Assembly: GCA_964549685.1 (NCBI GenBank)
Contig: CAZJVE010000016.1
Coordinates: 1-23,754 of the forward strand
Source: an uncultured archaeon
Lineage (GTDB): Archaea; Altiarchaeota; Altiarchaeia; IMC4; QMZM01
Length of the DNA: 23,754 nt
Direction of reading: 5' to 3'
The translations under genes were made by a program, and so were the position numbers. Below the pieces are notes generated by a model. That model ran no database searches and had not been told where the DNA came from. It saw only the letters and a program-made list of their open reading frames with translations. This document shows, piece by piece, positions 2,648 to 23,048 of the stretch. Numbering within the stretch: position 1 is the first letter of the stretch; every line of letters starts with the position of its first letter.

Positions 2648-3865
2648 ATGGAGCTCTATAAGACAAGTATACCCAAGCTGGATGAGTTCTTGGATGGTGG
2701 CATACGGCCGAAAACGATAACCGTATTCTGGGCCACCCCCGGGATTGAGAATACTCCCTTTGCCTATCAGCTTATGATGGAGAGCCTCGAGCGCGGGGAT
2801 TACTGTGTATATGTCACCCAGTCAAAAAAGAGCAGCACAGTCGAGAAGGAGATAGAGCACTACGGCTGGAACGCCACTCAGTACAGAAAAGTGGGGACGC
2901 TGAAATTTATAGATGCATACTCCGGTTTGATAAATGCTGATTCTGCGGATGAATTCTATGTCAAGGACGCAAGGAATCCCAAGGCAATCACCGAGATGCT
3001 TGAGAAAGCGCTTGGAGATATCAAGGACAAGAACAAGATAGTTGTATTCGATTCCATTTCGACCCTGATAGACCACTGCGGCGAAGAATCCCTGGAAGAG
3101 ATGTCGAACTGGAAGAAACTATTCGAGAAATATAACGCCATGGGGGTTTTTCTCTTTATAGAGTGGCCCTATGAAAAAGGGGTCATGAACAAGATTAAAC
3201 TAATGGCCGATGCAATTGTCCATCTGAAGGCCATAGAGGAGAAGGTAATCCTGAGGGAGTATTTCACCATATCCAAGGTGGCTTGGAACGGCAAGAACGA
3301 GGGGGTCGGAATCCCGTTCAAGATATCGGTTCCCGGCGGAGTCAAGGTCTATATACCCAAGCTACTTGTTACCGGGCCGTATAATGCCGGAAAAAGTTCA
3401 TTTGTTCATTCAGCATCTACTGGAGCGGTTTCCGTGGACAGGCTGGGCACCACAATAGCCCTCGATCACGGCCACGTAGACTATGCCGGATTCTCCGTTG
3501 ACCTCTTTGGAACGCCCGGTCAGGAACGCTTTGACCCAATACTCGGTTTGCTTGGAGGAGAAGCTCTGGGGGTTATAGTTGTCGTCGATTCCGCAGACCC
3601 GGACAGCTTTGCCAGGGCCAAGGAGATGATGGAGAGGTCAAAGAGCGTCGGACTCCCATGTGTTGTTGCCGCAAATAAGGCAAATCTCAAGGGGTCTCTG
3701 AGCCCTGAAGATATCAGGACGAAGATGAGATTGCCCAAGGACATACCTATAATTCCAGTAAGTGCTGACTCGGTGCCTTCAAAAGAAAAGGGCAAGGAAC
3801 CGGCCAAGTTGAATGAGGAGGATTTACATAACGTTTTTGATGTTTTGTTCAAGACATTAATGTGA
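2648..3865 (+). CDS. Fusion of an inactivated KaiC/RAD55-like RecA-fold domain (N-terminal) and an MglA/CvnD-like small GTPase (C-terminal)
   Basis: N-terminus has the KaiC pattern TSIPKLDEFLDGGI, a degenerate Walker A (ATPGIENT), FIDAYS, VVFDSISTL and ADAIVHL. C-terminus has G1 GPYNAGKS, G2 TTIALD, G3 GTPGQERF, VVVDS and G4 NKAN. Confidence 0.88.
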   Translation: MELYKTSIPKLDEFLDGGIRPKTITVFWATPGIENTPFAYQLMMESLERGDYCVYVTQSKKSSTVEKEIEHYGWNATQYRKVGTLKFIDAYSGLINADSADEFYVKDARNPKAITEMLEKALGDIKDKNKIVVFDSISTLIDHCGEESLEEMSNWKKLFEKYNAMGVFLFIEWPYEKGVMNKIKLMADAIVHLKAIEEKVILREYFTISKVAWNGKNEGVGIPFKISVPGGVKVYIPKLLVTGPYNAGKSSFVHSASTGAVSVDRLGTTIALDHGHVDYAGFSVDLFGTPGQERFDPILGLLGGEALGVIVVVDSADPDSFARAKEMMERSKSVGLPCVVAANKANLKGSLSPEDIRTKMRLPKDIPIIPVSADSVPSKEKGKEPAKLNEEDLHNVFDVLFKTLM

Positions 3866-3870
3866 GGTGA
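3864..3870 (+). promoter_or_regulatory. Shine-Dalgarno site for roadblock gene 1
   Basis: GAGGTGA overlaps the upstream stop codon and ends 4 nt before ATG 3875. Confidence 0.6.
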
Positions 3871-3874
3871 GTAA

Positions 3875-4246
3875 ATGCCAGAATCGAAAAAGGAGTCCCT
3901 TTTGAGGGTGCTCAAGGAGCTGACAAGCATAGGCGACATAGAAGGCTCTGCAATAGTAACCAGAGACGGCCTTCTGATAGCCTCGGACCTGTCAGGCGAC
4001 ATAGACGCGGAAACTCTTGCAGCAATGTCCGCTACCATGGTTGGAGCGGCAGAGACAGCAGTCTCCGAGCTCAAGAGAGGGACGGTGGAAAGAGTAATAG
4101 CGGAGGGAGAGCAGACAAAGCTGATAACGACTGGAGCTGGCCCCAATGCAGTCCTCGTCTCCATGGTCAACAAGAGCGCAAATCTTGGTCTAATCCTGGT
4201 TGAGATGAAGAGAACCGCCCATATGATAGAAAAGGAGATAGAGTAA
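3875..4246 (+). CDS. Roadblock/LC7 (MglB-like) protein, copy A1
   Basis: 123 aa with IEGSAIVTRDGLLIAS, LAAMSATMVGAAE and ANLGLIL.EMKR, the typical Roadblock/LC7 pattern. Lies directly downstream of the GTPase. Confidence 0.92.
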   Translation: MPESKKESLLRVLKELTSIGDIEGSAIVTRDGLLIASDLSGDIDAETLAAMSATMVGAAETAVSELKRGTVERVIAEGEQTKLITTGAGPNAVLVSMVNKSANLGLILVEMKRTAHMIEKEIE

Positions 4247-4248
4247 TT

Positions 4249-4617
4249 ATGGATTCCAAAAAGCAAAGACTTACAACATTGCTAGAAGGCCTGGAGCAGG
4301 AGGGTGATGTCGAATACGCTGCCCTGGTGACAAGGGACGGCCTCCTGATAGCATCCGGCTCTAAGGGAGACATCAATGAAGAAACCTTTGCAGCGATGTC
4401 CGCAACAATGCTCGGAGCAGCAGAGACAGCGGTCTCCGAGCTCAAGAGAGGGGTGGTCGAGAGAGTAATAGCCGAGGGAGAGCGGACAAAGCTAATAACG
4501 ACTGGAGCTGGCCCGAACGCAGTCCTGGTTTCCATGGTAAACAAGGACGCAAATCTCGGCCTAATCCTGGTCGAGATGAAGAGGACATCCCACATGATAG
4601 AGGAGGATATCTCATAA
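4249..4617 (+). CDS. Roadblock/LC7 (MglB-like) protein, paralog B
   Basis: 122 aa with VEYAALVTRDGLLIAS, FAAMSATMLGAAE and ANLGLILVEMKR. Starts 2 nt after the A1 stop. Confidence 0.92.
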   Translation: MDSKKQRLTTLLEGLEQEGDVEYAALVTRDGLLIASGSKGDINEETFAAMSATMLGAAETAVSELKRGVVERVIAEGERTKLITTGAGPNAVLVSMVNKDANLGLILVEMKRTSHMIEEDIS

Positions 4618-4618
4618 A

Positions 4619-4990
4619 ATGCCAGAATCGAAAAAGGAGTCCCTTTTGAGGGCGCTCAAGGAGCTGACAAGCATAGGCGACATAGAAGGCTCTGCAATAG
4701 TAACCAGAGACGGCCTTCTGATAGCCTCGGACCTGTCAGGCGACATAGACGCGGAAACTCTTGCAGCAATGTCCGCTACCATGGTTGGAGCGGCAGAGAC
4801 AGCAGTCTCCGAGCTCAAGAGAGGGACGGTGGAAAGAGTAATAGCGGAGGGAGAGCAGACAAAGCTGATAACGACTGGAGCTGGCCCCAATGCAGTCCTC
4901 GTCTCCATGGTCAACAAGAGCGCAAATCTTGGTCTAATCCTGGTTGAGATGAAGAGAACCGCCCATATGATAGAAAAGGAGATGGAATAA
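4619..4990 (+). CDS. Roadblock/LC7 (MglB-like) protein, copy A2
   Basis: 123 aa, identical to A1 except V12A and I122M. Starts 1 nt after the paralog B stop. Confidence 0.9.
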   Translation: MPESKKESLLRALKELTSIGDIEGSAIVTRDGLLIASDLSGDIDAETLAAMSATMVGAAETAVSELKRGTVERVIAEGEQTKLITTGAGPNAVLVSMVNKSANLGLILVEMKRTAHMIEKEME

Positions 4991-5010
4991 ATTCTCCCTT
5001 TTTCTTGCTT
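4991..5010 (+). terminator. Possible oligo-T terminator after the roadblock genes
   Basis: Pyrimidine tract TTCTCCCTTTTTCTTGCTT immediately after the stop codon. Confidence 0.3.
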
Positions 5011-5048
5011 AATAGTTGCGTATATTAATCCGAGGAATCTAATAGCTT

Positions 5049-5891
5049 ATGATGGTTGAGGAAACTACTGGAGCACCAGGGGCTGTAGGAACAACCCAGG
5101 AACCGGTAGCACCGAAGGCAGCGGAAAGCCCTGCGGGAGCACCACAATCAAGTCCAGATGCAACCGGGGGAACCCCCGAAACGCAGGGACAGGCAAAAGC
5201 CATACCCCTGAACATCGAGGGCATTGAAAACATTATCGGCGAGGGTTTTCCTATAGGTTCATGCGTTCTTCTGATAACGCCTCCAATGATTGAGGCAAAT
5301 CTCTTCTGCATGGAATTCGTCTACAGGGGCATTCTGAACAAGGAGCCTGGCATGATTGTCACAATGGACCACTCCCCCGAGGACATGAAGATAAAGGCGC
5401 TCAAGTACGGGTGGAATTTGTCCCGTGGTGAACAGGATAAGATTCTCAAATGGGTCGACGGCTATTCGATAAACGCCAACAAGGACGTGAAAAGCAGCGA
5501 CACGATAAAGAGAATCAGCGGCTCCATAGCCCTCTCGGACCTGACGATTGGCATGAGCCAAATTCAGCGCGAATACCACCAGGTCAGCGACCATTACCGC
5601 TTTATTTTCGACTCTCTTTCAACCCTTTTCATCTACAACGACGCCACGACCATATACCGCTTTCTGAGAGTAATAATCTCAAAGCTTAGAGCATCCGGCG
5701 GAGTTGGATTCTTCACGCTTGGGGAGAAAATGCACGACCAGCAGATTGAGATGACGCTCAGGCACATGATGGACGGCACCATAGAGCTGACCGATGATTT
5801 GACCCTCAGGGCCCAGAGCCTGCCACTCCCAACTCCGAGGAAGGAGGGCAAGCTCGAGCTGACAAACAGGGGCTTCAAGGTTGTTGGATAG
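5049..5891 (+). CDS. Inactivated KaiC/RAD55-like protein with a low-complexity N-terminal extension
   Basis: IPLNIEGIENIIGEGFPIGSCVLL, degenerate Walker A (TPPMIEAN), HSPED, WVDGYS, FIFDSLSTL, HMMDGTIEL, C-terminal LTNRGFKV. The first ~50 aa are rich in P/A/G/T/E/Q. Start may be 5049 or 5052. Confidence 0.85.
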   Translation: MMVEETTGAPGAVGTTQEPVAPKAAESPAGAPQSSPDATGGTPETQGQAKAIPLNIEGIENIIGEGFPIGSCVLLITPPMIEANLFCMEFVYRGILNKEPGMIVTMDHSPEDMKIKALKYGWNLSRGEQDKILKWVDGYSINANKDVKSSDTIKRISGSIALSDLTIGMSQIQREYHQVSDHYRFIFDSLSTLFIYNDATTIYRFLRVIISKLRASGGVGFFTLGEKMHDQQIEMTLRHMMDGTIELTDDLTLRAQSLPLPTPRKEGKLELTNRGFKVVG

Positions 5892-10967: not shown

Positions 10968-11591
10968 ATGCTATGTCCGAAATGCGGGAAGGAAACGAGA
11001 AAAGGCCTGTGCGAGGAGTGCTTCCTCGACAGGAATCCAATCAGGATGAAGGATATAGAGCTCATAATCTGCACTAGTTGCAATCAATTCAGGTACAAGG
11101 GCAAGTGGAACAAAAACCTTGACCGGTCCCTTGAACGAATCATCCTTGACAACCTCGTCCACCACCACGACATAAAAATAAGAGGAATCGAATTCAAATC
11201 AGAGGAGAAAAGGAATAAACTAGAACTCGATATTGATATAACAGCAGAATACCAGGGAGAGAAATTCAAAACCAAGCTGAAATCCTCCATAAAGCTCGAC
11301 AAGAGAAACTGCAAGGACTGCAGCCGGCGCTCCAGCGGATACTATGAGGCAATTCTCCAGTTCAGAATCAAGAAAACCCCCACCGACAAGGACGTCGACC
11401 CAAGATACGTAGCAAAGGTCGAGAAGGTCAGGGGCGGCTACGACTTCTACATCACCTCCATCCGATATGCCAGGCAGACAGCAGCCCACTACAGCGACAA
11501 GGGCTACAAGACCGGGCAATCCCCAAAGCAGGCGGGTGTCAGGGACGGAAAGAGCTTCTACAGGTTCTCTATTTCGATAAAGGAGGCGTAG
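10968..11591 (+). CDS. nmd3: NMD3-family ribosome biogenesis protein (short form)
   Basis: Four CxxC pairs (CPKC, CEEC, CTSC, CKDC) followed by SGYYEAILQFR and GGYDFY. At 207 aa it has no C-terminal OB domain. Confidence 0.85.
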   Translation: MLCPKCGKETRKGLCEECFLDRNPIRMKDIELIICTSCNQFRYKGKWNKNLDRSLERIILDNLVHHHDIKIRGIEFKSEEKRNKLELDIDITAEYQGEKFKTKLKSSIKLDKRNCKDCSRRSSGYYEAILQFRIKKTPTDKDVDPRYVAKVEKVRGGYDFYITSIRYARQTAAHYSDKGYKTGQSPKQAGVRDGKSFYRFSISIKEA

Positions 11592-11666
11592 ATGATGTGG
11601 TTAGTAAGATTGCATAAGAATAAGTTGGTAAAATGATGGAACCCGTTTTCATCACTTTATGCATCG

Positions 11667-12236
11667 TCAATTTTGACTTTTTCTTTTTTTACTCACCATT
11701 TCATCATATTTCTTTTTCCATTTCTTGTATTTTTTGTTACTGACCTTTACTGCGGTACTAACTAAAATAACAACCGGTAGTGCATAGAGGCAGAGTAATA
11801 TGGCTAAAATTAAGGAATTCTCTACTATTGGTTTCATATTAGTGAACACAAACCAACAAAAAAGGACAATAGAATTATAGATGTAGATGGGCATTCCTGT
11901 GGCGATGAGGTAGGCTAAATTCATCACTCTAACTTTCTCTTTGGAAGGACCCGCCCCACTTGTATCCTCCTTTTCAATTTTTTCTTTGATTTTCTCCACG
12001 ATGATTATCGTACCCATAATGAAGAAAATGGGGGCTATAAGAGGAACAGAAACAAAAAAGCCAATAGTAACCGATATTAGTATTTGTGATAAATCAAGTG
12101 GTTTGAAACCGATAAATGTACCGTGCAAAATATAGCCATTAACAAAGAAAATCATAAAGAATAGAAATACGAGCGAGGATTTCTCAATATCCTCCATTAC
12201 CTTTAAAATTTCAGAGATTAAACTCTTTTTCGTCAT
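11667..12236 (-). CDS. Hypothetical membrane protein (about 4 TM helices), AT-rich
   Basis: 189-aa open frame with four hydrophobic stretches and a Lys-rich tail; no recognisable family. Confidence 0.7.
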   Translation of the reverse strand: MTKKSLISEILKVMEDIEKSSLVFLFFMIFFVNGYILHGTFIGFKPLDLSQILISVTIGFFVSVPLIAPIFFIMGTIIIVEKIKEKIEKEDTSGAGPSKEKVRVMNLAYLIATGMPIYIYNSIVLFCWFVFTNMKPIVENSLILAILLCLYALPVVILVSTAVKVSNKKYKKWKKKYDEMVSKKRKSQN

Positions 12237-12320
12237 ATTAATTAATCAGAAAATAAAGCAGAAAAATCACTTTTTGTACAAATCCGAAAGGGTATATGGT
12301 GGATTAGATGATTTTATTTT

Positions 12321-12372
12321 CTAGGCCTCGCGTGCGACACCGCACGGTAGGTCTCGAAAACGCGACAAAACC
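12321..12372 (-). repeat. IS6-like terminal inverted repeat plus subterminal repeat, facing left
   Basis: Minus strand from 12372 reads GGTTTTGTCGCGTTTTCGAGACCTACCGTGCGGTGTCGCACGCGAGGC, homologous to the right-facing end at 12408. Confidence 0.55.
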
Positions 12373-12407
12373 TAGAAAATTGTTCACATTTTTGTAAACA
12401 ATATTTT

Positions 12408-12476
12408 GGTTCTGTCGCAAATTCGGGACTTCTACGAAAAACCTGTTTGCTTGTCGCACGCGGGACTTTTTCTACC
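12408..12476 (+). repeat. IS6-like terminal inverted repeat plus subterminal repeat, facing right
   Basis: GGTTCTGTCGCAAA (12408-12421) is one base from the IS257/IS1216-type IR GGTTCTGTTGCAAA as recalled. An internal second copy TGTCGCACGCGGGACTT starts at 12452. Confidence 0.65.
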
Positions 12477-12482
12477 GAATTT

Positions 12483-12504
12483 GGGATTTTCATTGCAAAA
12501 TCCC
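12483..12504. repeat. 8-bp hairpin upstream of the island genes
   Basis: GGGATTTT-cattgc-AAAATCCC; function unknown. Confidence 0.5.
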
Positions 12505-12549
12505 CACTCAGAAAAACCAGAAAATTTGGTGGGGGTGGATGTGATGTAA

Positions 12550-12786
12550 ATGGATAAAAATGTAGTGCCTAACTCCGATTTAAAGGATGAAAAACAAGGA
12601 TTAAATGATAAGAAAATGCCTGATTTAGTAGATTATATTGCTTATGCTGTATTTGGGGGCTTAATAGCCATTTTTCTTTTTCCCGCTATATCCCCCCACG
12701 TATCAAATTTTATTGTTCTTGGACAGAATGATTATTTTGTTGTAGGGGCGATTATTGGTATTCTTATTGGTTTACGTAGACGATGA
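12550..12786 (+). CDS. Small hypothetical membrane protein (2 TM helices)
   Basis: 78 aa with two hydrophobic stretches. G-rich SD-like sequence upstream and ATGA overlap with the next gene. Confidence 0.65.
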   Translation: MDKNVVPNSDLKDEKQGLNDKKMPDLVDYIAYAVFGGLIAIFLFPAISPHVSNFIVLGQNDYFVVGAIIGILIGLRRR

Positions 12787-13433
12787 TACTCCAAGATTTT
12801 TTTTATACTTTTCAATCAAGCATACTAGCCACTTGGCTTATTGCGGGTATTGTAATTTTATTAAAGAGAAGAGCAGGTAAAAAAGTTAGTAGTGATGATT
12901 ATGTGCGGATAATTCTAGATGCCTATCTAATTGTTTCTTGTATTTCAATTCTTTATTTTATACTTACTGACGGTAGTTTTATTTTTGGAAATCAAATAAG
13001 TGATTTATATATCCCATTGAGCGTTGCAGTAGTGATTTTGTTAAATTATTCTCTAGGAGAGTTGAAGGGTATGGGGGATTACCTCTCTAATACCCAAGAA
13101 AGTGCCGTTAGTGGGTCTAATCAATCTGAAGAAACAGAATCTAAAAAACCTAAAAGTCCAACCAATGGAAAAAAGTTGAAGAAATATTCTAAAACGGATT
13201 TCAACAATATTGAACTGAGCATTATGAATAGATTGAATAAATTATATGGGTATCGTCCATGTAGAATAGAGTTCTTACAAAATGAACTTTCACTAACGGC
13301 TATGGATATGAATAAGGCCATTTTCAATTTGAAGAAGGCTGAGGCAATAACTGCACAAGGCTCTGATGTTAAACATCCTACCATGAGTCTTAATGAAATT
13401 TTTAAAAAAGACCATGAAGAACTATTTGATTAA
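12783..13433 (+). CDS. Hypothetical protein: 3 N-terminal TM helices, polar linker, possible C-terminal winged helix
   Basis: 216 aa. C-terminal FNNIELSIMNRL..CRIEFLQNELSLTAMDMNKAIFNLKKAEAIT has wHTH-like spacing (judged by eye). Confidence 0.7.
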   Translation: MILQDFFYTFQSSILATWLIAGIVILLKRRAGKKVSSDDYVRIILDAYLIVSCISILYFILTDGSFIFGNQISDLYIPLSVAVVILLNYSLGELKGMGDYLSNTQESAVSGSNQSEETESKKPKSPTNGKKLKKYSKTDFNNIELSIMNRLNKLYGYRPCRIEFLQNELSLTAMDMNKAIFNLKKAEAITAQGSDVKHPTMSLNEIFKKDHEELFD

Positions 13434-13534
13434 CATTTAACACTCGCCATCATCAACCCCAACATCTTATTCTCTCCCAAATTCAGGTCTATCCCTGCGG
13501 CCTCGGCGGGTGTAGTGCCTAACTTTTTGATTGG
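13430..13534 (-). pseudogene. C-terminal remnant of an archaeal IS6-like DDE transposase/integrase
   Basis: Hand translation gives PIKKLGTTPAEAAGIDLNLGENKMLGLMMASVKC*. TPAEAAGI..L..GENK is the tail that follows YNxxRPH in these enzymes. No start codon or catalytic core is present. Confidence 0.65.
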
Positions 13535-13678
13535 TTACTTTGCTGAACTTGTAATAAATATCAGTTTATCGCATTTAGGGCAAACCCAGAAGTGTTGTTT
13601 CCTGTAGCCCCCCACATCCTCCTTCTTTTCATTCAATTCCTTTACTGTTATCTTCTCATCACATATTGGACATCTCAT
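13535..13678 (-). CDS. Small CPxC...CPxC zinc-finger/zinc-ribbon protein (47 aa)
   Basis: Not in the ORF track. MRCPICDEKITVKELNEKKEDVGGYRKQHFWVCPKCDKLIFITSSAK; starts 25 nt after the hisH stop on the same strand. Confidence 0.75.
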   Translation of the reverse strand: MRCPICDEKITVKELNEKKEDVGGYRKQHFWVCPKCDKLIFITSSAK

Positions 13679-13703
13679 TTTCCGTTTGAAATATAGTCCC
13701 CAT

Positions 13704-14291
13704 CTATATCTCCAGAAAATTCTTCAGCACCCTCAGCCCCGGTTCGCCGCTCTTCTCCGGGTGGAACTGCGTTGCGAAGACATTCCCTTTTTCTATAACG
13801 GAAGGGAATTCTACCTCATAATCCGTCGTCGCAACAACAACATCATCTTCTGGGACTGGATAGTATGAGTGCACGAAATAGAAGTAATCCTCCTTCCCTA
13901 TCCCGTCCAGCAGCCTGCTTTTCCCGACCTTTATCGAATTCCACCCCATATGTGGAATTTTCACAGATGATGGGAACCTCTTACAAGTTCCCTTAACAAT
14001 CCCAAGACCCTTCACACCGGGGGATTCCTCGCTGCCTTCGAGAATTACCTGTATGCCGAGGCACAGGCCGAGGAACGGCACGTCCTTTTCAATCTTTTCC
14101 AGCAGGACCTCTCTGAAGCCCTCGAGGCGCTGCATCGCGGGTCCGAAGTTGCCCACTCCCGGGAGGATTATCTTCTCCGCCTTCTCCAGCTGCTCTGCCT
14201 TTGTAACAAGCTCCACCTTCTCCCCGAGCTTCATACAGGCATTGCTTATACTTCTCAGGTTTCCTGCTCCATAATCAATCAATGCAATCAT
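13704..14291 (-). CDS. hisH: Imidazole glycerol phosphate synthase, glutaminase subunit
   Basis: IDYGAGNLRSI, ILPGVGNF, LGLCLGIQ, PHMGWN, YFYFVHSY, TQFHPEKSG. Confidence 0.96.
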   Translation of the reverse strand: MIALIDYGAGNLRSISNACMKLGEKVELVTKAEQLEKAEKIILPGVGNFGPAMQRLEGFREVLLEKIEKDVPFLGLCLGIQVILEGSEESPGVKGLGIVKGTCKRFPSSVKIPHMGWNSIKVGKSRLLDGIGKEDYFYFVHSYYPVPEDDVVVATTDYEVEFPSVIEKGNVFATQFHPEKSGEPGLRVLKNFLEI

Positions 14292-17044: not shown

Positions 17045-18289
17045 CTACGTCCCTTCCTCCCACGTTTCAAGATATTTTTTCTGCTCGTCTGTCAGAGCAT
17101 CGATTTCTATGCCCATCGTCTTTAACTTCAACTTAGCAATCCCCTTGTCAATCTCCTGTGGGATTGGATGTACGCCGGGCTTCAGGTCGTTCTCAATCAA
17201 ATGCTTGACTGCCATTGCCTGGTTAGCGAAACTCATGTCCATAACCTCGGAGGGGTGTCCTTCTGCAGCGGCAAGATTCACCAGCCGCCCCTCGGCAAGG
17301 AGGTATATCGATTTATCTCCCAGTTCATACTTGACGACGTTGTCGCGAATTTCCTTCTTACTCTTTGACAGACTCTCAAGGTCGGGAATCGTAATCTCAT
17401 TGTTAAAGTGCCCTGAGTTAGCAACAACTGCTCCGTCCCTCATCTTCTCGAAGTGCTCCTTTCTCAGTATTTTTGTATCTCCTGTAGCAGTTATGAATAT
17501 CTCGCCAACCTCAGATGCCTTGTCCATTGACATTACCCTGAATCCGTCCATGGCGGCTTCAAGTGCCCTGACTGGGTCCACCTCGGTAACAATGACATTG
17601 CTCCCCATGCCGCCCGCCCTTGCGGCAATTCCCCTGCCGCAGAAGCCATAGCCGGAAACGACCACGTTCCTCCCGGCGAACAGTATGCTGGTAGCCCTTA
17701 GAATCCCGTCAATCGTAGACTGCCCGGTTCCATAGCGGTTGTCAAAGAAGTGCTTGGTCATCGCATTGTTGATATCCATCACGGGATACTTTAGTGCGTT
17801 GTCTTTTTCCATGGCCTTGAGCCTTATTATGCCGGTCGTGGTTTCCTCGCACCCACCCCTTATTTCCTTGAGGAGGTCCTGCCTCTCCTTATGCACGACA
17901 AAGACCAGGTCGCCGCCGTCATCTATCGTTACTTGTGGCTTGAAATCCAGGACCTTATTGATGTTCTTGTAGTACTCCTCCTTTGTCTCGCCTCTCCATG
18001 CATACACCTTGATTCCTTCGGAGGCAAGATATGCCGCAACGTCGTCCTGTGTAGATAAGGGATTGCAGCCCGTTATTGAAACATCTGCCCCCCCAGCAAT
18101 CAGCGTTTCCACAAGAACCGCGGTCTCCTTCGTTACGTGAAGAGCGAACCCCACTCTAATTCCTTCAAGGGGCTTCTCCTGTGAGAATTCCTTCTTAATC
18201 TCCATCAAAACCGGCATGTGGGCCCTGGCCCACTCGACCTTCAGCTTTCCTGAATCCGCCAGCTTTATGTCCTTAACGTCGTAATCCAT
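17045..18289 (-). CDS. ahcY: Adenosylhomocysteinase
   Basis: HMPVL, LHVTKETAVL, CNPLSTQDDVAA, IDDGGD, EETTTG, KHFFDNRYGTGQS, GYGFCGRG, NSGHFN, GRLVNLAAAEGHPSEVMDMSF. Confidence 0.97.
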   Translation of the reverse strand: MDYDVKDIKLADSGKLKVEWARAHMPVLMEIKKEFSQEKPLEGIRVGFALHVTKETAVLVETLIAGGADVSITGCNPLSTQDDVAAYLASEGIKVYAWRGETKEEYYKNINKVLDFKPQVTIDDGGDLVFVVHKERQDLLKEIRGGCEETTTGIIRLKAMEKDNALKYPVMDINNAMTKHFFDNRYGTGQSTIDGILRATSILFAGRNVVVSGYGFCGRGIAARAGGMGSNVIVTEVDPVRALEAAMDGFRVMSMDKASEVGEIFITATGDTKILRKEHFEKMRDGAVVANSGHFNNEITIPDLESLSKSKKEIRDNVVKYELGDKSIYLLAEGRLVNLAAAEGHPSEVMDMSFANQAMAVKHLIENDLKPGVHPIPQEIDKGIAKLKLKTMGIEIDALTDEQKKYLETWEEGT

Positions 18290-18310: not shown

Positions 18311-19306
18311 CTATTTATTTGGTTTCAATATTACTTTCAGAGACACCTCCGCCTCAGCAACCAGCCTGAATCCCTCCGCGGCCTTATCGAGAGGGAGCAC
18401 GTGGGTTATCATATCACGCACGTTTATCCCGCCCTCCTTGATGAGTTCAAGCGCCCCCTCCAGGTCGTTAGGCGCGGCCCCGTATGATGTCCTTACCGTT
18501 ACCTCGTTACGCCAGAATTCGTTTATAGGCACCGTCAATTCAAAACCGGGCTCAGGAACAGCAAAGAAGAGAACCGTCCCGCCCCTGTCAACGCACTTTA
18601 GGGCCTGTCTTGCTGCTGCCTCGGCTCCCGTACAGACGATAACCACGTCGGCCTTCACCTCTATCTCCTCTTTGGCACCCATAACCTCATCAGCCCCGAA
18701 CCTCCGGGCCATATCACGCCGCGATTCATTTACATCCGTCGCAATGATTCTTTTCGCTCCCTTCAATTTCGCAAGCTGAACATGCAACAGCCCTGAAATC
18801 CCACTACCGAGGACAAGAACGGTCTGCCCCTTCCCAACCCCCGCGAGCCTCTGCCCCCTGACAACGCATGCCAGGGGCTCGATAAAGGTGCCGTCTTCAT
18901 AAGAAACATTCTCAGGCAGCCTGTAGACCCCGTTCTTTACGTTAATCTCAGGGACCCTGATGAATTCCGCAAATCCGCCGGGGTCGAAGTTCGTCTTGTG
19001 CAGTGTCTCGCAGGCGGTATGGTGCCCGGCCTTGCATTGCTCACAATCATTGCATGGCACATGATGCGAGACAAAGACACTCTCCCCTACCTTGTAGGGG
19101 ACACCTTCCCCGGTCTCGACTATCTCGCCAGTAACCTCATGACCCAGAACTCTTGGAGCGGTCTTCAGGCGGTACCATTCCATGACGTCGGAGCCGCAGA
19201 TTCCCGAGGCCATCATCTTCAGGAGAAATTCTCCATTGCCAATCTCCGGTTTTGGGAATTCCTCAACCCTCACGTCATTGTTGTTGTAGTAGACTGCTAC
19301 TTTCAT
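18311..19306 (-). CDS. Zn-dependent medium-chain dehydrogenase (sorbitol/iditol/threonine dehydrogenase-like)
   Basis: GICGSD, LGHE, structural Zn site CNDCEQC...C, IEPLAC, GSGISG Rossmann motif. Confidence 0.92.
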   Translation of the reverse strand: MKVAVYYNNNDVRVEEFPKPEIGNGEFLLKMMASGICGSDVMEWYRLKTAPRVLGHEVTGEIVETGEGVPYKVGESVFVSHHVPCNDCEQCKAGHHTACETLHKTNFDPGGFAEFIRVPEINVKNGVYRLPENVSYEDGTFIEPLACVVRGQRLAGVGKGQTVLVLGSGISGLLHVQLAKLKGAKRIIATDVNESRRDMARRFGADEVMGAKEEIEVKADVVIVCTGAEAAARQALKCVDRGGTVLFFAVPEPGFELTVPINEFWRNEVTVRTSYGAAPNDLEGALELIKEGGINVRDMITHVLPLDKAAEGFRLVAEAEVSLKVILKPNK

Positions 19307-19312
19307 TTTTAT

Positions 19313-20104
19313 CTAGACCTTCAACTTCTTGTTTAACCCGTCAATAGGTTTTGGATAATGGCCGACCCCCCTGAACTTCTTGGTGTAGATTGCCTTGCTG
19401 GGGCAGTGATTGTAACAAACCCAGCATCCATGACATTTCTCCATGTCAAAGACGGGCTTTGGGCTGAGCTTGATGGCATCGTAGGGACACAGTTTCTCAC
19501 AGGTGCCGCATTCGGTGCAGAGCGCTTCATCGACATACTTCTCACCCATGTCCTTCCTTGCCCTGGTTCGGGAGAACACTGGCAACAGCCTGTTCAACAG
19601 GCTGATATCCAGCCCCCTTTTGATTTCTCTGCCCTCCTTAATATCGCCCAGCAGACCGTCCAGGTCAGAGATAAAGCCATTGAACCTCTTCATCTCCTTT
19701 TCGTTGGGTGCCTGTTCATTGGCTCTACCTCTTGCTATCATGGGCGGATAGCTCTCAGGAGTGTGTAGGGAATGCCCTGCAATAACATCAAACCCTTTTG
19801 CAGCCGCCCATCCCTTGAAGACCTTGAGCGTTTTACCGCTTATGAAACCATAGGTGTTGAACACGAATGCAGGCTTGTTGTTCTGCCGGGGTAGTTTTTC
19901 CATAAAGGCCCGAACTATATATGACGGCCCGAAAAAATCCGTAAAGGCAGCGAACCCGACCGCGTCATATTGCTCCAAATCGGGAGCATCGGCCCTGACA
20001 ATGTCAAAAAGCTCGAACTCGACATTTTTGACATTCTTCGCGATATACTGGCAGGCCAATTCCGTATTCCCCGAACCCGAATAATAGCATATTATACCTT
20101 TCAT
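19313..20104 (-). CDS. EFR1-type flavodoxin-like plus 2[4Fe-4S] ferredoxin protein
   Basis: Start moved to ATG 20104 (MKGIICYYSGSGNT), which overlaps the upstream stop as ATGA. C-terminal CTECGTCEKLCP and CHGCWVCYNHCP. Confidence 0.88.
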   Translation of the reverse strand: MKGIICYYSGSGNTELACQYIAKNVKNVEFELFDIVRADAPDLEQYDAVGFAAFTDFFGPSYIVRAFMEKLPRQNNKPAFVFNTYGFISGKTLKVFKGWAAAKGFDVIAGHSLHTPESYPPMIARGRANEQAPNEKEMKRFNGFISDLDGLLGDIKEGREIKRGLDISLLNRLLPVFSRTRARKDMGEKYVDEALCTECGTCEKLCPYDAIKLSPKPVFDMEKCHGCWVCYNHCPSKAIYTKKFRGVGHYPKPIDGLNKKLKV

Positions 20105-20781
20105 TTTTTCTTCAGCCTTTTTTGAACCTTCTCGTCGGTCAATTCCCGAAGGGCATCCGAGGCAATCCACCTCGCGCTTTTGGAATCCATCTTCTGGATT
20201 TCTTTGGCGGCCTTGATGGCCTTCCTGTTCAGGGCAGGGTTCCTCTTCCCTATCTGTCTCAAAGCCCAGTTGACGGCCTTCTTGACGAAATTCCGCTCGT
20301 CATCAACCTCCCTTTTGATTATAGGGAAGAAGCTCTCAAATAAGCTGTCTGGGGCTTTTTTATCGTGCACCGAAAGGGTGGCCATCAGTACAAAGCCGGA
20401 CCTCTTTACGAATTCCTCCTCTCTGGAACTCCATTCAACGGCCTTGTCATAGGTAAAGGGGGTTTTGTCAAAGAGGTTGCTGCAGACCTGGTCACAAATA
20501 TCCCATGAGTCGATGTCCTTCACCCAGGACTCCATCTGCTTCTCAGTAACCTTGTCGGGCTCACCGACCATTCCTGCAAGAATTCTCGCCTCATGGATGT
20601 CAGACTTCCAGAGCTGCAGGGCCAGTTTGTGGTCCTTGCCTATCTCCTTTGCCATCGGCCTCAGCGTATACAGGGATATGCCCAGCGTGCCCTTCGGATT
20701 AATCCCGAACCTCGCCATGCCTGCAACATTCTCGGGGTTCGCCAGAGAATCCAGCCTCTTTAGAATCTCCTCATACTGCAT
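20101..20781 (-). CDS. AlkD-like DNA alkylation repair protein (HEAT-repeat family)
   Basis: LALQLWKSDIHEARILA, WVKDIDSWDICD, W....EEFVKRSGF, DDERNFVKKAVNWALRQIGKRN. Confidence 0.88.
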   Translation of the reverse strand: MQYEEILKRLDSLANPENVAGMARFGINPKGTLGISLYTLRPMAKEIGKDHKLALQLWKSDIHEARILAGMVGEPDKVTEKQMESWVKDIDSWDICDQVCSNLFDKTPFTYDKAVEWSSREEEFVKRSGFVLMATLSVHDKKAPDSLFESFFPIIKREVDDERNFVKKAVNWALRQIGKRNPALNRKAIKAAKEIQKMDSKSARWIASDALRELTDEKVQKRLKKK

Positions 20782-20801
20782 TTTTGCCTGAAGAAAAAAC
20801 C

Positions 20802-20915
20802 TTACTCCTCCTTCTCACACTCACACTCCTCTGGGGGCTTGCCACACTTCTCGCAGACGCCTTCCTCTACCTTGGCCCCGCACCCGCATGGAGTACAACC
20901 GCATTCATCACACAT
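20802..20915 (-). CDS. 37-aa cysteine-rich metallothionein-like peptide
   Basis: MCDECGCTPCGCGAKVEEGVCEKCGKPPEECECEKEE has 9 Cys. Strong SD GAGGTGA lies 5 nt upstream of the ATG, and the ORF fills the lsrF-alkD gap. Confidence 0.8.
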   Translation of the reverse strand: MCDECGCTPCGCGAKVEEGVCEKCGKPPEECECEKEE

Positions 20916-20928
20916 ATTTTTCACCTCG

Positions 20929-21765
20929 TTATTCCTTTCTATCTGAAAACTGCAGAGCCTTGTCCGGACTTGCGTTATCTTGCACTGCTCCTTCTCCCTC
21001 AAAAATCTGCATCCCCTCCTTCGGGGTTGCGTTATCATGGACAACCGCCCTGACAGCCTTAATCATTGCTACAGGATTGCTCGACTGGAAGATGTTCCTG
21101 CCCATGTCGACCCCGACTGCCCCTGCCTGGATTGCGCCGTGCGCCATTTCAAGAGCCTCCTTCTCGGGAAGCTTCTTCCCCCCGGCAATCACAACCGGAA
21201 CTGGGCACGTGTCAACAACCTTCTCGAAGTCCTCGCAGTAGTAGGTCTTGACGAAATGCACGCCAAGCTCGGCGGCCATCCTGCACGCCAGTGACATATA
21301 TCTTGCATCCCTTTTCATGTCCTTGCCAACTGCTGTTACTGCAAGGACGGGGATTCCATACTCCTGCCCGGCGTCGATGACCTCAGTCAGGCCAAGAAGC
21401 GTGTCTCTTTCATATTCCGAACCGACCATTATCGAGAACGCCATTCCTGCAACGTTGAGCCGTATGGCATCTTCTATGCCTACTGTAATCCCCTCCCTCA
21501 GCATTTCCTTGCTTAATACACTCGTGCCTCCGGAAACCCGAAGCACGATTGGAACGTCGGTATTCGGGTCGATGTAGTTCCTCAGCCCGCCCCTGGTAGG
21601 CATCAGGCAGTCTGCATACGGCAGCAATGGTTCTACTGCTTCTTTCAGATTCTCCAGCCCTGTTGTAGGGCCGAGAAAGTAGCCGTGGTCCACGGCAAGC
21701 ATCACGGTCCTTCCGTCCTTTGGTTTTATAATCCTTGAAAGCCTGTTTCTCATTCCCCAGTCCAT
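20929..21765 (-). CDS. lsrF: LsrF-type thiolase (class I DhnA aldolase fold)
   Basis: MDWGMRNRLSRII, MLAVDHGYFLGPTTGLE, VLRVSGG, VLAVTAVGKDMKRDARY, Schiff-base Lys in VKTYY, IAGGKKLPE, GVDMGRNIFQ; closely follows the LsrF subfamily. Confidence 0.88.
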   Translation of the reverse strand: MDWGMRNRLSRIIKPKDGRTVMLAVDHGYFLGPTTGLENLKEAVEPLLPYADCLMPTRGGLRNYIDPNTDVPIVLRVSGGTSVLSKEMLREGITVGIEDAIRLNVAGMAFSIMVGSEYERDTLLGLTEVIDAGQEYGIPVLAVTAVGKDMKRDARYMSLACRMAAELGVHFVKTYYCEDFEKVVDTCPVPVVIAGGKKLPEKEALEMAHGAIQAGAVGVDMGRNIFQSSNPVAMIKAVRAVVHDNATPKEGMQIFEGEGAVQDNASPDKALQFSDRKE

Positions 21766-21766
21766 T

Positions 21767-21973
21767 TTATCCCTCCGGCCTCACGATTAAATAGCCTTTA
21801 TCGATGAGCCAGTGATGAAACTGATATGTTGTGAACCTGCACGAGTCCTTGCAGGTTGCGCGGATTCTTTCATAATCTCCAGAACCCTCCTCCATGGAAT
21901 TCAGCTCAAGTTGCGTCGGGCACTCCACGTCCTTGCAGAACTCCCTTCGCTGGTAGTCTATATAGCCGTCCAT
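21767..21973 (-). CDS. Small hypothetical Cys/His protein (68 aa), possibly metal-binding
   Basis: FCKDVECP...TCKDSC..TYQFHHWL. First gene of the minus-strand run, ending 1 nt before the lsrF start. Confidence 0.75.
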   Translation of the reverse strand: MDGYIDYQRREFCKDVECPTQLELNSMEEGSGDYERIRATCKDSCRFTTYQFHHWLIDKGYLIVRPEG

Positions 21974-22007
21974 TGGTATAGTATAATATAAAAGGACTGC
22001 ATAAAAG
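21974..22007. promoter_or_regulatory. Divergent promoter region between the lsrF run and mtnA
   Basis: 34-bp gap containing TATAATATAAAA (21982-21993) and ATAAAA (22001-22006). Confidence 0.45.
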
Positions 22008-23048
22008 ATGAGGGTTAAGATAAACGGCAGGCAGCAGGACTATAGAACCGTGTGGGTGGAGGGCAACGAGGTCTGCATGATTGACCAGCCCAAGCTCCCG
22101 CACAGCTTTGAGATTTACAGGTCAAAGGACTACCGGGCTACGACCGATGCAATCAGGAACATGGTTGTCAGGGGGGCCCCGGCTATCGGCGCAACGGCAG
22201 CCTATGCCATGGCCCAGGCAGCCGGTGAATTCACTGGCGGCAGCGCAGAGGAATTCCCCAGTCATATGGAGGGAGCGGCCCAGGAGATAAAATCCGCAAG
22301 GCCCACGGCCTACGACCTGTTCCATGCCGTTGATGAGATTGAATCCGGGCTGAGGAAGACAAAGTCGGTCAGCGAAGCCTCGGAACTGGCGAAAAAGGCC
22401 GCACAGGCCTACGCCGATAAAAGCGCCGAGCGCTGCAAGAAGATAGGTGAGGTGGGAGAGAAGCTCATAAAAGAGAACTCCAGAATTCTCACTCATTGTA
22501 ATGCTGGAGCCCTCGCATGCGTGGACTACGGCACCGCCCTTTCCCCAATTCGATTTGCTAAATACAACGGCAAAGAGCCCTTCGTCTTCGTGGATGAGAC
22601 AAGGCCAAGGTGCCAGGGCTCACGGCTCACTGCCTGGGAGCTTCTCCAGGAGGAGATAGACCATGCAATCATTGTCGATAATGCCGCGGGACATTTCATG
22701 CAGAAGGGCGAGATAGATATCGTAATAGTCGGGGCCGACAGGATAGCAAAGAACGGCGACGTTGCCAACAAGATAGGAACCTATGAAAAAGCAGTCCTCG
22801 CAAAGGAGAACGGCATTCCGTTCTATGTTGCTGCCCCTGAAAGCACATTCGACAAGGGTTGTGCCACAGGGGCCGACATAGTCATAGAGGAGAGGGATGA
22901 AAACGAGGTCCTCTCAATGTTTGGGGAGAACTCCACCACAATCAGAATCTCGCCTCTCAACTCAAAGGCCAGGAACCCTGCATTCGACGTAACTCCTGCC
23001 AAATACATAACAGGAATCATAACAGAAAGCGGGATTGTAAAGAATTAA
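22008..23048 (+). CDS. mtnA: S-methyl-5-thioribose-1-phosphate / 5-deoxyribose-1-phosphate isomerase
   Basis: IDQPKLP, MVVRGAPAIG, ARPTA, LTHCNAGALA..YGTAL, DETRP..QGSRLTAWEL, VGADRI..NGDVANKIGTY, NPAFDVTP. Confidence 0.93.
   Translation: MRVKINGRQQDYRTVWVEGNEVCMIDQPKLPHSFEIYRSKDYRATTDAIRNMVVRGAPAIGATAAYAMAQAAGEFTGGSAEEFPSHMEGAAQEIKSARPTAYDLFHAVDEIESGLRKTKSVSEASELAKKAAQAYADKSAERCKKIGEVGEKLIKENSRILTHCNAGALACVDYGTALSPIRFAKYNGKEPFVFVDETRPRCQGSRLTAWELLQEEIDHAIIVDNAAGHFMQKGEIDIVIVGADRIAKNGDVANKIGTYEKAVLAKENGIPFYVAAPESTFDKGCATGADIVIEERDENEVLSMFGENSTTIRISPLNSKARNPAFDVTPAKYITGIITESGIVKN

Follow-up and report, generated by a model that had tools for sequence, protein, structure and literature searches.

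Why does an uncultured archaeon of the Altiarchaeota keep a gene of the LsrF family, known from autoinducer-2 (AI-2) processing in Escherichia coli, close to the genes of an MtnA and of a zinc-dependent dehydrogenase? We have analysed this question on a stretch of 23,754 nucleotides (GenBank assembly GCA_964549685.1, contig CAZJVE010000016.1), called the window below. It is contig C16 of a 1.17-Mb genome that consists of 27 contigs and is estimated to be 85% complete, and all absences reported for this genome hold within that completeness. Three genes of the window are in question: mtnA, encoding an S-methyl-5-thioribose-1-phosphate isomerase of 346 aa (22008..23048, plus strand; TIGR00512 405.5 bits against a cut-off of 279, PF01008 288 bits); the gene of an LsrF-type class I (Schiff-base) enzyme of 278 aa (20929..21765, minus strand; NF006081 403.1 bits, cut-off 297); and the gene of a Zn-dependent medium-chain dehydrogenase of the polyol/threonine dehydrogenase type with 331 aa (18311..19306, minus strand; PF08240 and PF00107). 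These profile matches confirm the three genes that a preliminary description of the window had located. That description had also read them as an oxidative salvage route for 5'-deoxyadenosine, and this interpretation, which our analyses partly support, now stands on much firmer ground than at the time of its proposal.

5'-Deoxyadenosine is a toxic by-product of S-adenosylmethionine (SAM) that is made by radical-SAM enzymes, for which the genome shows 17 matches. In the route that we favour, an MTAP-like phosphorylase, whose gene is present and whose activity is predicted, would release 5-deoxyribose-1-phosphate, and MtnA would isomerise it to 5-deoxyribulose-1-phosphate; for this second step the enzyme family is established, and the substrate is known in the literature for the MtnA of Methanocaldococcus jannaschii. 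In the third step, the dehydrogenase would use nicotinamide adenine dinucleotide (NAD+) to oxidise the C4 hydroxyl, giving 3-hydroxy-5-phosphonooxypentane-2,4-dione. In the fourth, the LsrF-type enzyme would form a Schiff base through Lys173 and pass the acetyl group to coenzyme A (CoA), so that dihydroxyacetone phosphate (DHAP) and acetyl-CoA would result, as its resemblance to E. coli LsrF and its fully conserved active site suggest. The dehydrogenase and LsrF would form a module that stands in for the class II aldolase in the DHAP shunt, works independently of AI-2 and may also handle methylthioadenosine. To this order of events, that is, phosphorylase, MtnA, NAD+-dependent oxidation at C4 and then CoA-dependent thiolysis to DHAP and acetyl-CoA, we assign a probability of about 0.5. 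By our own derivation, oxidation of P-OCH2-CO-CHOH-CHOH-CH3 at C4 gives P-OCH2-CO-CHOH-CO-CH3, the compound that NCBIfam names as the LsrF substrate; the preliminary description, which had claimed this identity, agrees with the structures. Gene identities, conserved residues, linkage and co-occurrence are observed directly, and it is both catalytic steps of the pair and the substrate that we infer.

Judged by its sequence, the LsrF-like protein is a genuine member of the LsrF family. Its identity to E. coli LsrF is about 56-60% (56% by tblastn against K-12), and it scores 310 bits over 255 residues against the E. coli LsrF structures 3GKF, 3GLC and 4P2V. The alignment begins at E. coli residue 32, so that residues 1-31, at the end where the E. 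coli decamer has its domain-swapped N-terminal segment, are without counterpart in the window protein. D26, H27, K173, G195, G196, D220, M221, G222 and R223 of the window protein correspond to E. coli D57, H58, K203, G226, G227, D251, M252, G253 and R254, and none of these nine catalytic and phosphate-site residues varies in any of the 72 aligned relatives. According to the passages cited from Diaz 2009, Lys203 is the Schiff-base lysine of the E. coli enzyme and Asp57 its general base, the phosphate site consists of His58, Gly226, Gly227, Gly253 and Arg254, and Asp251 is an LsrF-specific catalytic candidate, where related aldolases have Ser or Ala. The AroA' paralog of the same genome (contig C5; 363.3 bits to the ADH synthase model TIGR01949) has Ser-Ile at the position of the LsrF Asp-Met, and the LsrF-like protein itself reaches 189.7 bits with TIGR01949, below the cut-off of 299.45. 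E. coli LsrF is a CoA-dependent thiolase that yields DHAP and acetyl-CoA, according to the RefSeq product name and to the part of the literature that cites it. We propose the window enzyme as a candidate 3-hydroxy-5-phosphonooxypentane-2,4-dione thiolase.

With respect to AI-2, this LsrF-like gene is an orphan. Profile scans agree with the preliminary description that lsrK, lsrG, lsrABCD, luxS and class II aldolase genes are missing from the window. In the whole genome, LuxS and the FGGY_N kinase give 0 matches each, and E. coli LsrK, LsrR, LsrB and LsrG, used as tblastn queries, have 0 hits both in the genome and in the 80 related loci introduced below. An lsr operon elsewhere in the genome, which had been named as a circumstance that would weaken the proposal, has thus not appeared in these searches.

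A putative upstream half of the route can be read from the genome. It has one PNP_UDP_1 protein (contig C10), which adjoins a purine phosphoribosyltransferase and has the MTAP model TIGR01694 as its best match. A second gene of the IF-2B family (contig C1) is a ribose-1,5-bisphosphate isomerase (TIGR00511, 334.8 bits), and therefore the window mtnA is the sole MtnA; presumably it also isomerises 5-deoxyribose-1-phosphate. Since an MTAP-like phosphorylase and MtnA are both present, the organism can presumably make 5-deoxyribulose-1-phosphate and methylthioribulose-1-phosphate. No known enzyme consuming either of them was found in the genome, where the class II aldolase family PF00596 has 0 matches; likewise, the MtnK of a bacterial relative (locus L059, see below) has no tblastn hit there.

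The dehydrogenase has its best solved relatives among sorbitol dehydrogenases (154 bits), together with xylitol, L-arabinitol 4- and L-threonine 3-dehydrogenases, and these closest solved relatives oxidise secondary alcohols. It reaches no NCBIfam cut-off, the best being the threonine dehydrogenase (Tdh) model TIGR00692 with 167.5 bits against 380 and NF003808 with 157.5 against 458. In 60 of 60 orthologs, we have found four groups of residues invariant: C37, H56, E57 and E143, which we take to be the catalytic zinc ligands; C85, C88, C91 and C99, presumably the structural zinc lobe; G167, G169 and G172, presumably the GxGxxG motif of a Rossmann fold; and D191, which we assume to mark an NAD-type enzyme. 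In addition, H81, C147 and R150 (motifs HHVPC and EPLxCxxR) are invariant and specific to this clade, unlike E. coli Tdh and GatD, and they are kept even in archaeal dehydrogenases of only 31-38% identity. Public names for the clade are generic ('zinc-dependent dehydrogenase', 'L-iditol 2-dehydrogenase'). We propose the window enzyme as a candidate NAD+-dependent 5-deoxyribulose-1-phosphate 4-dehydrogenase.

To what extent do the two genes belong together? When each species was represented by a single genome, the scan returned at least 595 relatives of the LsrF-like gene, of which we kept the best 80 loci with up to 8 kb on each side (genomes, contigs and loci are cited by our own G, C and L numbers). 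The LsrF-like proteins of these loci are 59-92% identical to that of the window. They span many bacterial and archaeal lineages, with Thermoplasmatota, Nitrososphaerota, Altiarchaeota, Aenigmatarchaeota, Undinarchaeota, Omnitrophota, Binatia, Nitrospirota, Thermodesulfobacteriota, Acidobacteriota, Planctomycetota, Spirochaetota and Chloroflexota among them. By tblastn, 72 of the 80 loci contain a dehydrogenase homolog, in almost all cases as a same-strand neighbour of the LsrF-like gene. Among these 72 linked dehydrogenases, 59 have an identity of 47-91% and 13 of 31-38%, and all 13 lie directly upstream in loci labelled Nitrososphaerota or, in L054, Conexivisphaerales. Part of this count is one unpublished genome (G037, locus L039), which also enters the counts of 45/50 and 17/50 given below, the alignments and the tree; without it, the three counts are 71/79, 44/49 and 16/49, and none of our conclusions rests on it. 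We have also clustered the neighbours, taking up to six open reading frames (ORFs) on either side in the 72 loci that were usable; in the other eight (L030, L041, L046, L054, L069, L071, L074 and L075), our crude ORF caller missed lsrF, and these are left out of the clustering, the alignments and the tree and are part of the tblastn count over the 80 loci. In the clustering, the dehydrogenase is the only widely shared neighbour (60 of 72 loci), followed by an EamA transporter (8) and MtnA (5), and the others are housekeeping genes.

The same pairing is seen at the level of genomes. We have drawn evenly 201 Thermoplasmatota genomes that are at least 80% complete, in which NF006081 separates members (at least 355 bits) cleanly from paralogs (at most 188 bits), so that 59 genomes are LsrF+ and 142 LsrF-. 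A dehydrogenase ortholog, called at 276 bits or more (or, in G131, from two adjacent fragments of one gene) and having at least 50% identity, occurs in 52 of the 59 LsrF+ genomes versus 1 of the 142 LsrF- genomes (Fisher p=3e-39); in this single LsrF- genome, the gene stands at the start of a contig. The ortholog shares the contig of LsrF in 38 of the 52 cases, within about 4 kb. Overall, the Zn dehydrogenase is a dedicated partner of the LsrF-type enzyme, and, of the conserved three-gene linkage on which the preliminary description had staked its proposal, the part that concerns dehydrogenase and lsrF is borne out by the 72 of 80 loci and by the genome counts. In a quick maximum-likelihood tree, E. 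coli LsrF forms a long branch beside two dehydrogenase-linked bacterial members (SH-aLRT, an approximate likelihood-ratio test, 94), while the backbone is unresolved. This tree is compatible with a derivation of the AI-2 LsrF from the dehydrogenase-linked family and does not prove it.

The next question is whether the pair is connected with MtnA. Phylogenetic profiling against mtnA, which had been suggested as a check, shows an MtnA over the cut-off in 57 of 59 LsrF+ and 78 of 142 LsrF- Thermoplasmatota (p=5.6e-10), and in 45 of 45 LsrF+ and 80 of 106 LsrF- genomes among 151 Omnitrophota (hand count). For the genomes of the best 80 loci, the proportion is 74/80 (45/50 plus 29/30).

In several genomes the genes are joined physically. 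A locus of Aenigmatarchaeota (L015) has the co-directional order mtnA-lsrF-dehydrogenase. In a locus of Anaerolineaceae (L059), one strand carries a sugar ABC transporter (binding protein, ATPase and permease) followed by mtnA, mtnK, lsrF and the dehydrogenase, the MtnK reaching 508 bits with TIGR01767. In a genome of Thermoplasmatota (G080), a short ORF resembling a class II aldolase, mtnA and lsrF follow one another with stops overlapping starts, the dehydrogenase being on another contig. Further mtnA-linked loci are L067, L009, the window and L003. The clusters joining the pair to mtnA, once with mtnK, are independent in at least five lineages, and mtnA within 8 kb in 5 of 80 loci is, by our own rough estimate, about ten times the expectation for a random gene in genomes of 1-5 Mb. 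As a separate observation, nine genomes (G026, G032, G033, G037, G040, G044, G046, G049 and G050) have a second, divergent MtnA-like gene of about 190-217 bits. It lies in an open frame of 510-560 aa that is directly followed by a class II aldolase match (e.g. G044:C4:29620-31631), an arrangement that may represent a fused or tightly coupled isomerase-aldolase; these genomes are large and bacterial, and the LsrF pair is present in them too.

The pair is also complementary to the known route through a class II aldolase. In the MtnA+ Thermoplasmatota, mtnA has a strong class II aldolase (157 bits or more) directly next to it in 28 of 78 LsrF- genomes versus 0 of 57 LsrF+ genomes (p=2.8e-8), and any PF00596 match is found in 73 of 78 versus 18 of 57 (p=9e-15). 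Of the first 50 LsrF+ genomes, which come from mixed phyla, 33 are without a class II aldolase match. Beside this, four LsrF- Thermoplasmatota have a non-LsrF paralog of the DhnA family (about 146 bits to NF006081) 2-3 kb from an mtnA-class II aldolase pair (G181:C1:608762-612212; G173:C2:138375-143115; G189:C2:136364-141099; G157:C5:74454-79194).

Several observations weigh against the oxidative route or limit what the above counts can tell. The sampled phyla often have MtnA even where LsrF is absent (55% and 75% of the LsrF- genomes), and because of this the co-occurrence discriminates only moderately. The pair is physically near mtnA only exceptionally, in 5 of the 80 loci besides the window and G080. 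The Fisher tests treat genomes as independent and make no correction for shared ancestry. The MTAP-like phosphorylase is below its family cut-off (205.2 bits against 274.85), and the route leaves the methylthio branch unexplained. To our knowledge, no enzyme activity has been reported for this dehydrogenase clade. Finally, the in silico data accord with either order of the two steps, oxidation and then thiolysis or aldol cleavage and then reduction. The computational checks named with the proposal (linkage, MtnA profile, lack of an lsr operon) and the clusters all speak for it, and the activity and the order of the steps are predictions.

Aldolases provide a further set of adverse points. Some class II aldolase is present in 17 of the first 50 LsrF+ genomes, and a short class II aldolase-like ORF stands beside mtnA in 10 of 59 LsrF+ Thermoplasmatota (7 of 142 LsrF-). 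These ORFs have 142-194 aa and match only the first half of PF00596. We have located them in L086 (4682-5200), L009 (4998-5456), L008 (801-1226) and L067 (9874-10458), that is, in Thermoplasmatota and another archaeon; the ORF is beside mtnA in L067 and L009 and beside lsrF in L008. Where it is present, this short protein could be a real aldolase. Such a role is weakened by two results: two of the four aligned copies (L009 and L008) are without the Glu and His metal/catalytic residues that the canonical mtnA-adjacent aldolase keeps, and no copy occurs in the window's own genome.

The layout of the window is also less tidy than the pairing elsewhere, since two unrelated genes separate lsrF from the dehydrogenase. 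One encodes an AlkD-like DNA alkylation repair protein (20101..20781, minus strand; PF08713, 140 bits), the other an EFR1-family ferredoxin with a flavodoxin-like domain and two 4Fe-4S motifs (19313..20170, minus strand; NF038196 128.4 bits, cut-off 75). In the closest relative (L003, LsrF 92% identical), lsrF and the dehydrogenase are adjacent and the AlkD-like gene is not between them; this gene is probably outside the pathway. The EFR1 ferredoxin occurs near the LsrF-like gene in 1 of 80 loci, there as a short partial match.

Among the alternatives, the one that survives best reverses the order of the two enzymes. The LsrF-like protein would cleave 5-deoxyribulose-1-phosphate or methylthioribulose-1-phosphate as a class I aldolase, releasing DHAP and acetaldehyde or 2-(methylthio)acetaldehyde, and ethanol or 2-(methylthio)ethanol would then arise through reduction by the dehydrogenase, so that the DHAP shunt would run with a class I aldolase. 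The association with MtnA, the clusters and the complementarity with the class II aldolase fit this order equally well, and LsrF does have the fold and the Schiff-base lysine of class I aldolases. Moreover, an alcohol dehydrogenase of R. rubrum reduces 2-(methylthio)acetaldehyde after the aldolase, according to the passages cited from the Sekowska review (PMC6302742). Against this order, other cited passages on the published shunt name no dedicated dehydrogenase, and here the coupling is as strict as 52/59 versus 1/142 genomes. The LsrF-specific Asp251 is kept and the Tyr/Glu proton donor of related aldolases is missing, the protein closely resembles a known CoA-dependent thiolase, and the closest solved relatives of the dehydrogenase form ketones from secondary alcohols rather than reduce aldehydes. 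On account of an active site peculiar to LsrF, of the kind of dehydrogenase involved and of how strictly the two genes are coupled, we rate the reverse order lower and regard it as unlikely. The oxidative route is favoured for its part by the derived identity of the substrate, by the secondary-alcohol relatives of the dehydrogenase and by the precedent of the E. coli tdh-kbl genes.

In tdh-kbl, a Zn medium-chain dehydrogenase and a CoA-dependent enzyme of C-C cleavage that gives acetyl-CoA are adjacent, which is the same logic as proposed here. With Tdh, oxidation of a CH3-CHOH- group leads to a beta-keto compound, and Kbl is a pyridoxal phosphate-dependent enzyme, unlike the Schiff-base TIM-barrel LsrF. 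Their substrate is an amino acid, whereas the one proposed here is a sugar phosphate; the window dehydrogenase also differs from Tdh in falling far below the Tdh cut-off and in carrying the clade-specific H81, C147 and R150.

A second alternative, which we consider rather improbable, is that the substrate of the pair has nothing to do with MtnA. It could be 1-deoxy-D-xylulose-5-phosphate (DXP), a damaged sugar phosphate or phospho-AI-2 taken from neighbours, and the link to MtnA would then reflect a shared lineage or lifestyle. In agreement with this, most pairs are located among housekeeping genes with no mtn gene nearby, MtnA is frequent without LsrF (78/142 and 80/106), and C4 oxidation of DXP would also give the LsrF substrate by our own derivation. 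However, LsrF+ genomes without MtnA are rare (2/59, 0/45 and 6/80), the pair has been joined to mtnA, and once also to mtnK, independently in at least five lineages, and it is anti-correlated with the mtnA-adjacent class II aldolase (0/57 versus 28/78). The 85%-complete genome has no match for DXP synthase, an FGGY/LsrK kinase or LsrB; without a DXP synthase match, DXP drops out as the origin of the diketone in this archaeon, and we have rejected it as a precursor.

Biosynthetic roles are the least credible, namely the pair running in reverse from acetyl-CoA and DHAP to a deoxypentulose phosphate, for which the thiolase direction towards the diketone is energetically unfavourable, or LsrF as a synthase of 6-deoxy-5-ketofructose-1-phosphate (DKFP) that feeds the AroA'/AroB' aromatic pathway while the dehydrogenase interconverts lactaldehyde and methylglyoxal. 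The genome does use the AroA' route, as its ADH synthase on contig C5 indicates, and M. jannaschii has been proposed to turn 5-deoxyribulose-1-phosphate into lactaldehyde and methylglyoxal (passages of Rapp 2021, PMC8102628), but the pair is widespread in bacteria, the LsrF-like protein misses the ADH-synthase cut-off, and 38 of the 59 LsrF+ Thermoplasmatota are without a second DhnA-family match and hence without AroA', for which reason we have rejected the identity of the LsrF-like gene as DKFP synthase.

The oxidative route can be compared with what is known of its relatives. E. coli LsrF (3-hydroxy-2,4-pentadione 5-phosphate thiolase, b1517), the terminal enzyme of AI-2 processing, shares with the window enzyme the family model, the Schiff-base lysine, Asp57, Asp251, the phosphate site and the proposed substrate and products. 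It differs in its context: the window gene is without an lsr operon (LsrK, LsrG, LsrACDB and LsrR), and its substrate would come from a dehydrogenase acting on the product of MtnA, not from LsrG acting on phospho-AI-2. With the DHAP shunt or 5-deoxyribose salvage (MtnP or MtnK/DrdK, MtnA/DrdI and the class II aldolase Ald2/DrdA), the route has in common the entry steps, 5-deoxyribulose-1-phosphate and DHAP. The metal-dependent aldolase is replaced by a dehydrogenase and a Schiff-base thiolase, and the two-carbon product would be acetyl-CoA plus NADH instead of free acetaldehyde. The cluster in L059 mirrors the layout of the 5-deoxyribose cluster as given in the published passages (kinase, isomerase, aldolase and some transporters), with the aldolase replaced. 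In M. jannaschii, a promiscuous phosphorylase (MTIP) and MtnA (MJ0454) act on 5-deoxyribose-1-phosphate, according to passages in PMC8102628 and PMC6302742. This 5'-deoxyadenosine route is likewise archaeal and starts with a phosphorylase and MtnA; in the same passages it continues by a transketolase-like cleavage to lactaldehyde (methylglyoxal, DKFP), whereas here oxidation and thiolysis would follow.

In the open-access literature of PMC and bioRxiv, we have found nothing that links LsrF to 5-deoxyribulose, methylthioribose or radical-SAM deoxyribose, and nothing relevant that joins deoxyribulose, acetyl-CoA and thiolase; among the papers listed there on the DHAP shunt and 5'-deoxynucleosides, none mentions LsrF. 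The route thus appears to be undescribed within this literature, as the preliminary description had supposed, and an oxidative, CoA-dependent route would be a new version of the DHAP shunt. It bears on a known gap, that is, the fate of 5-deoxyribulose-1-phosphate and methylthioribulose-1-phosphate in organisms that have MtnP or MtnK plus MtnA and are without the aldolase or the later methionine-salvage genes. For cyanobacteria with only mtnP and mtnA, a passage of a 2021 paper (PMC8102628) states that they 'must employ another pathway'.

As a tentative generalisation, held at slightly less than even odds, we propose that the dehydrogenase clade with the HHVPC and EPLxCxxR motifs forms together with LsrF the missing downstream half of the salvage of 5'-deoxyadenosine, and perhaps of methylthioadenosine, without release of acetaldehyde, and that the AI-2-quenching LsrF of enterobacteria is a late recruit from an older housekeeping enzyme. 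The many archaeal and bacterial carriers with only a phosphorylase or kinase and MtnA would include ammonia-oxidising Nitrososphaerota, Thermoplasmatota, Altiarchaeota, Omnitrophota and Binatia. If this is true, the gap would be filled by a defined pair of enzymes, and a function would be given to thousands of proteins labelled 'L-iditol 2-dehydrogenase', 'zinc-dependent dehydrogenase' or 'LsrF aldolase', including those of the globally abundant ammonia-oxidising archaea. It would also mean a detoxification of a universal radical-SAM by-product that conserves carbon and energy, and the quorum-quenching LsrF would be recast as an offshoot of the salvage of a SAM by-product.

Around the three genes, the window has further features. 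The tightly packed minus-strand run that contains lsrF is headed by a 68-aa ORF with four cysteines (21767..21973), which has no match in Pfam or NCBIfam. The 34-bp divergent gap that had been described between mtnA and this run is real (21974-22007) and shared by both; the gene opposite mtnA is the 68-aa ORF and not lsrF itself. The stop of this ORF overlaps the start of lsrF, which means translational coupling, and in L003 (96% identity) and L011 (55%) this ORF likewise precedes the LsrF-like gene. Between lsrF and the AlkD-like gene there are 147 bp, which hold another small cysteine-rich ORF (20802-20915, minus strand). This ORF has about 37 aa from an internal Met of an 80-aa frame and many CxC/CxxC motifs, and L003 has a counterpart to part of it with 86% identity; it is without family match in Pfam and NCBIfam.

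Downstream of the dehydrogenase, at a distance of 21 bp, lies ahcY, encoding S-adenosylhomocysteine hydrolase (17045..18289, minus strand; TIGR00936 645 bits, cut-off 497.6), and the order of dehydrogenase and AhcY is found in L003 as well. A stretch of 6 kb therefore holds two genes for SAM by-products, AhcY for S-adenosylhomocysteine and MtnA for methylthioadenosine and 5'-deoxyadenosine. The minus-strand run continues beyond ahcY with Csl4, FEN1, a DUF362 protein and HisH.

The rest of the window contains PheRS, LeuRS, a KaiC/GTPase/Roadblock cluster and other genes, and no tRNA was found in it. The GC (guanine plus cytosine) content falls to 0.34-0.43 at 11000-14000, as compared with about 0.50 elsewhere, and two ORFs of this stretch (11667-12236, minus strand, and 12783-13433, plus strand) have no Pfam match. 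The KaiC/GTPase/Roadblock cluster (2648-5891, plus strand) consists of five genes, which encode a fusion of a KaiC-like ATPase and a small Ras/Arf-like GTPase (405 aa), three Roadblock/LC7 proteins of 122-123 aa each from consecutive genes and a second KaiC-like protein, and it looks like an archaeal small-GTPase system of the MglA/MglB type.

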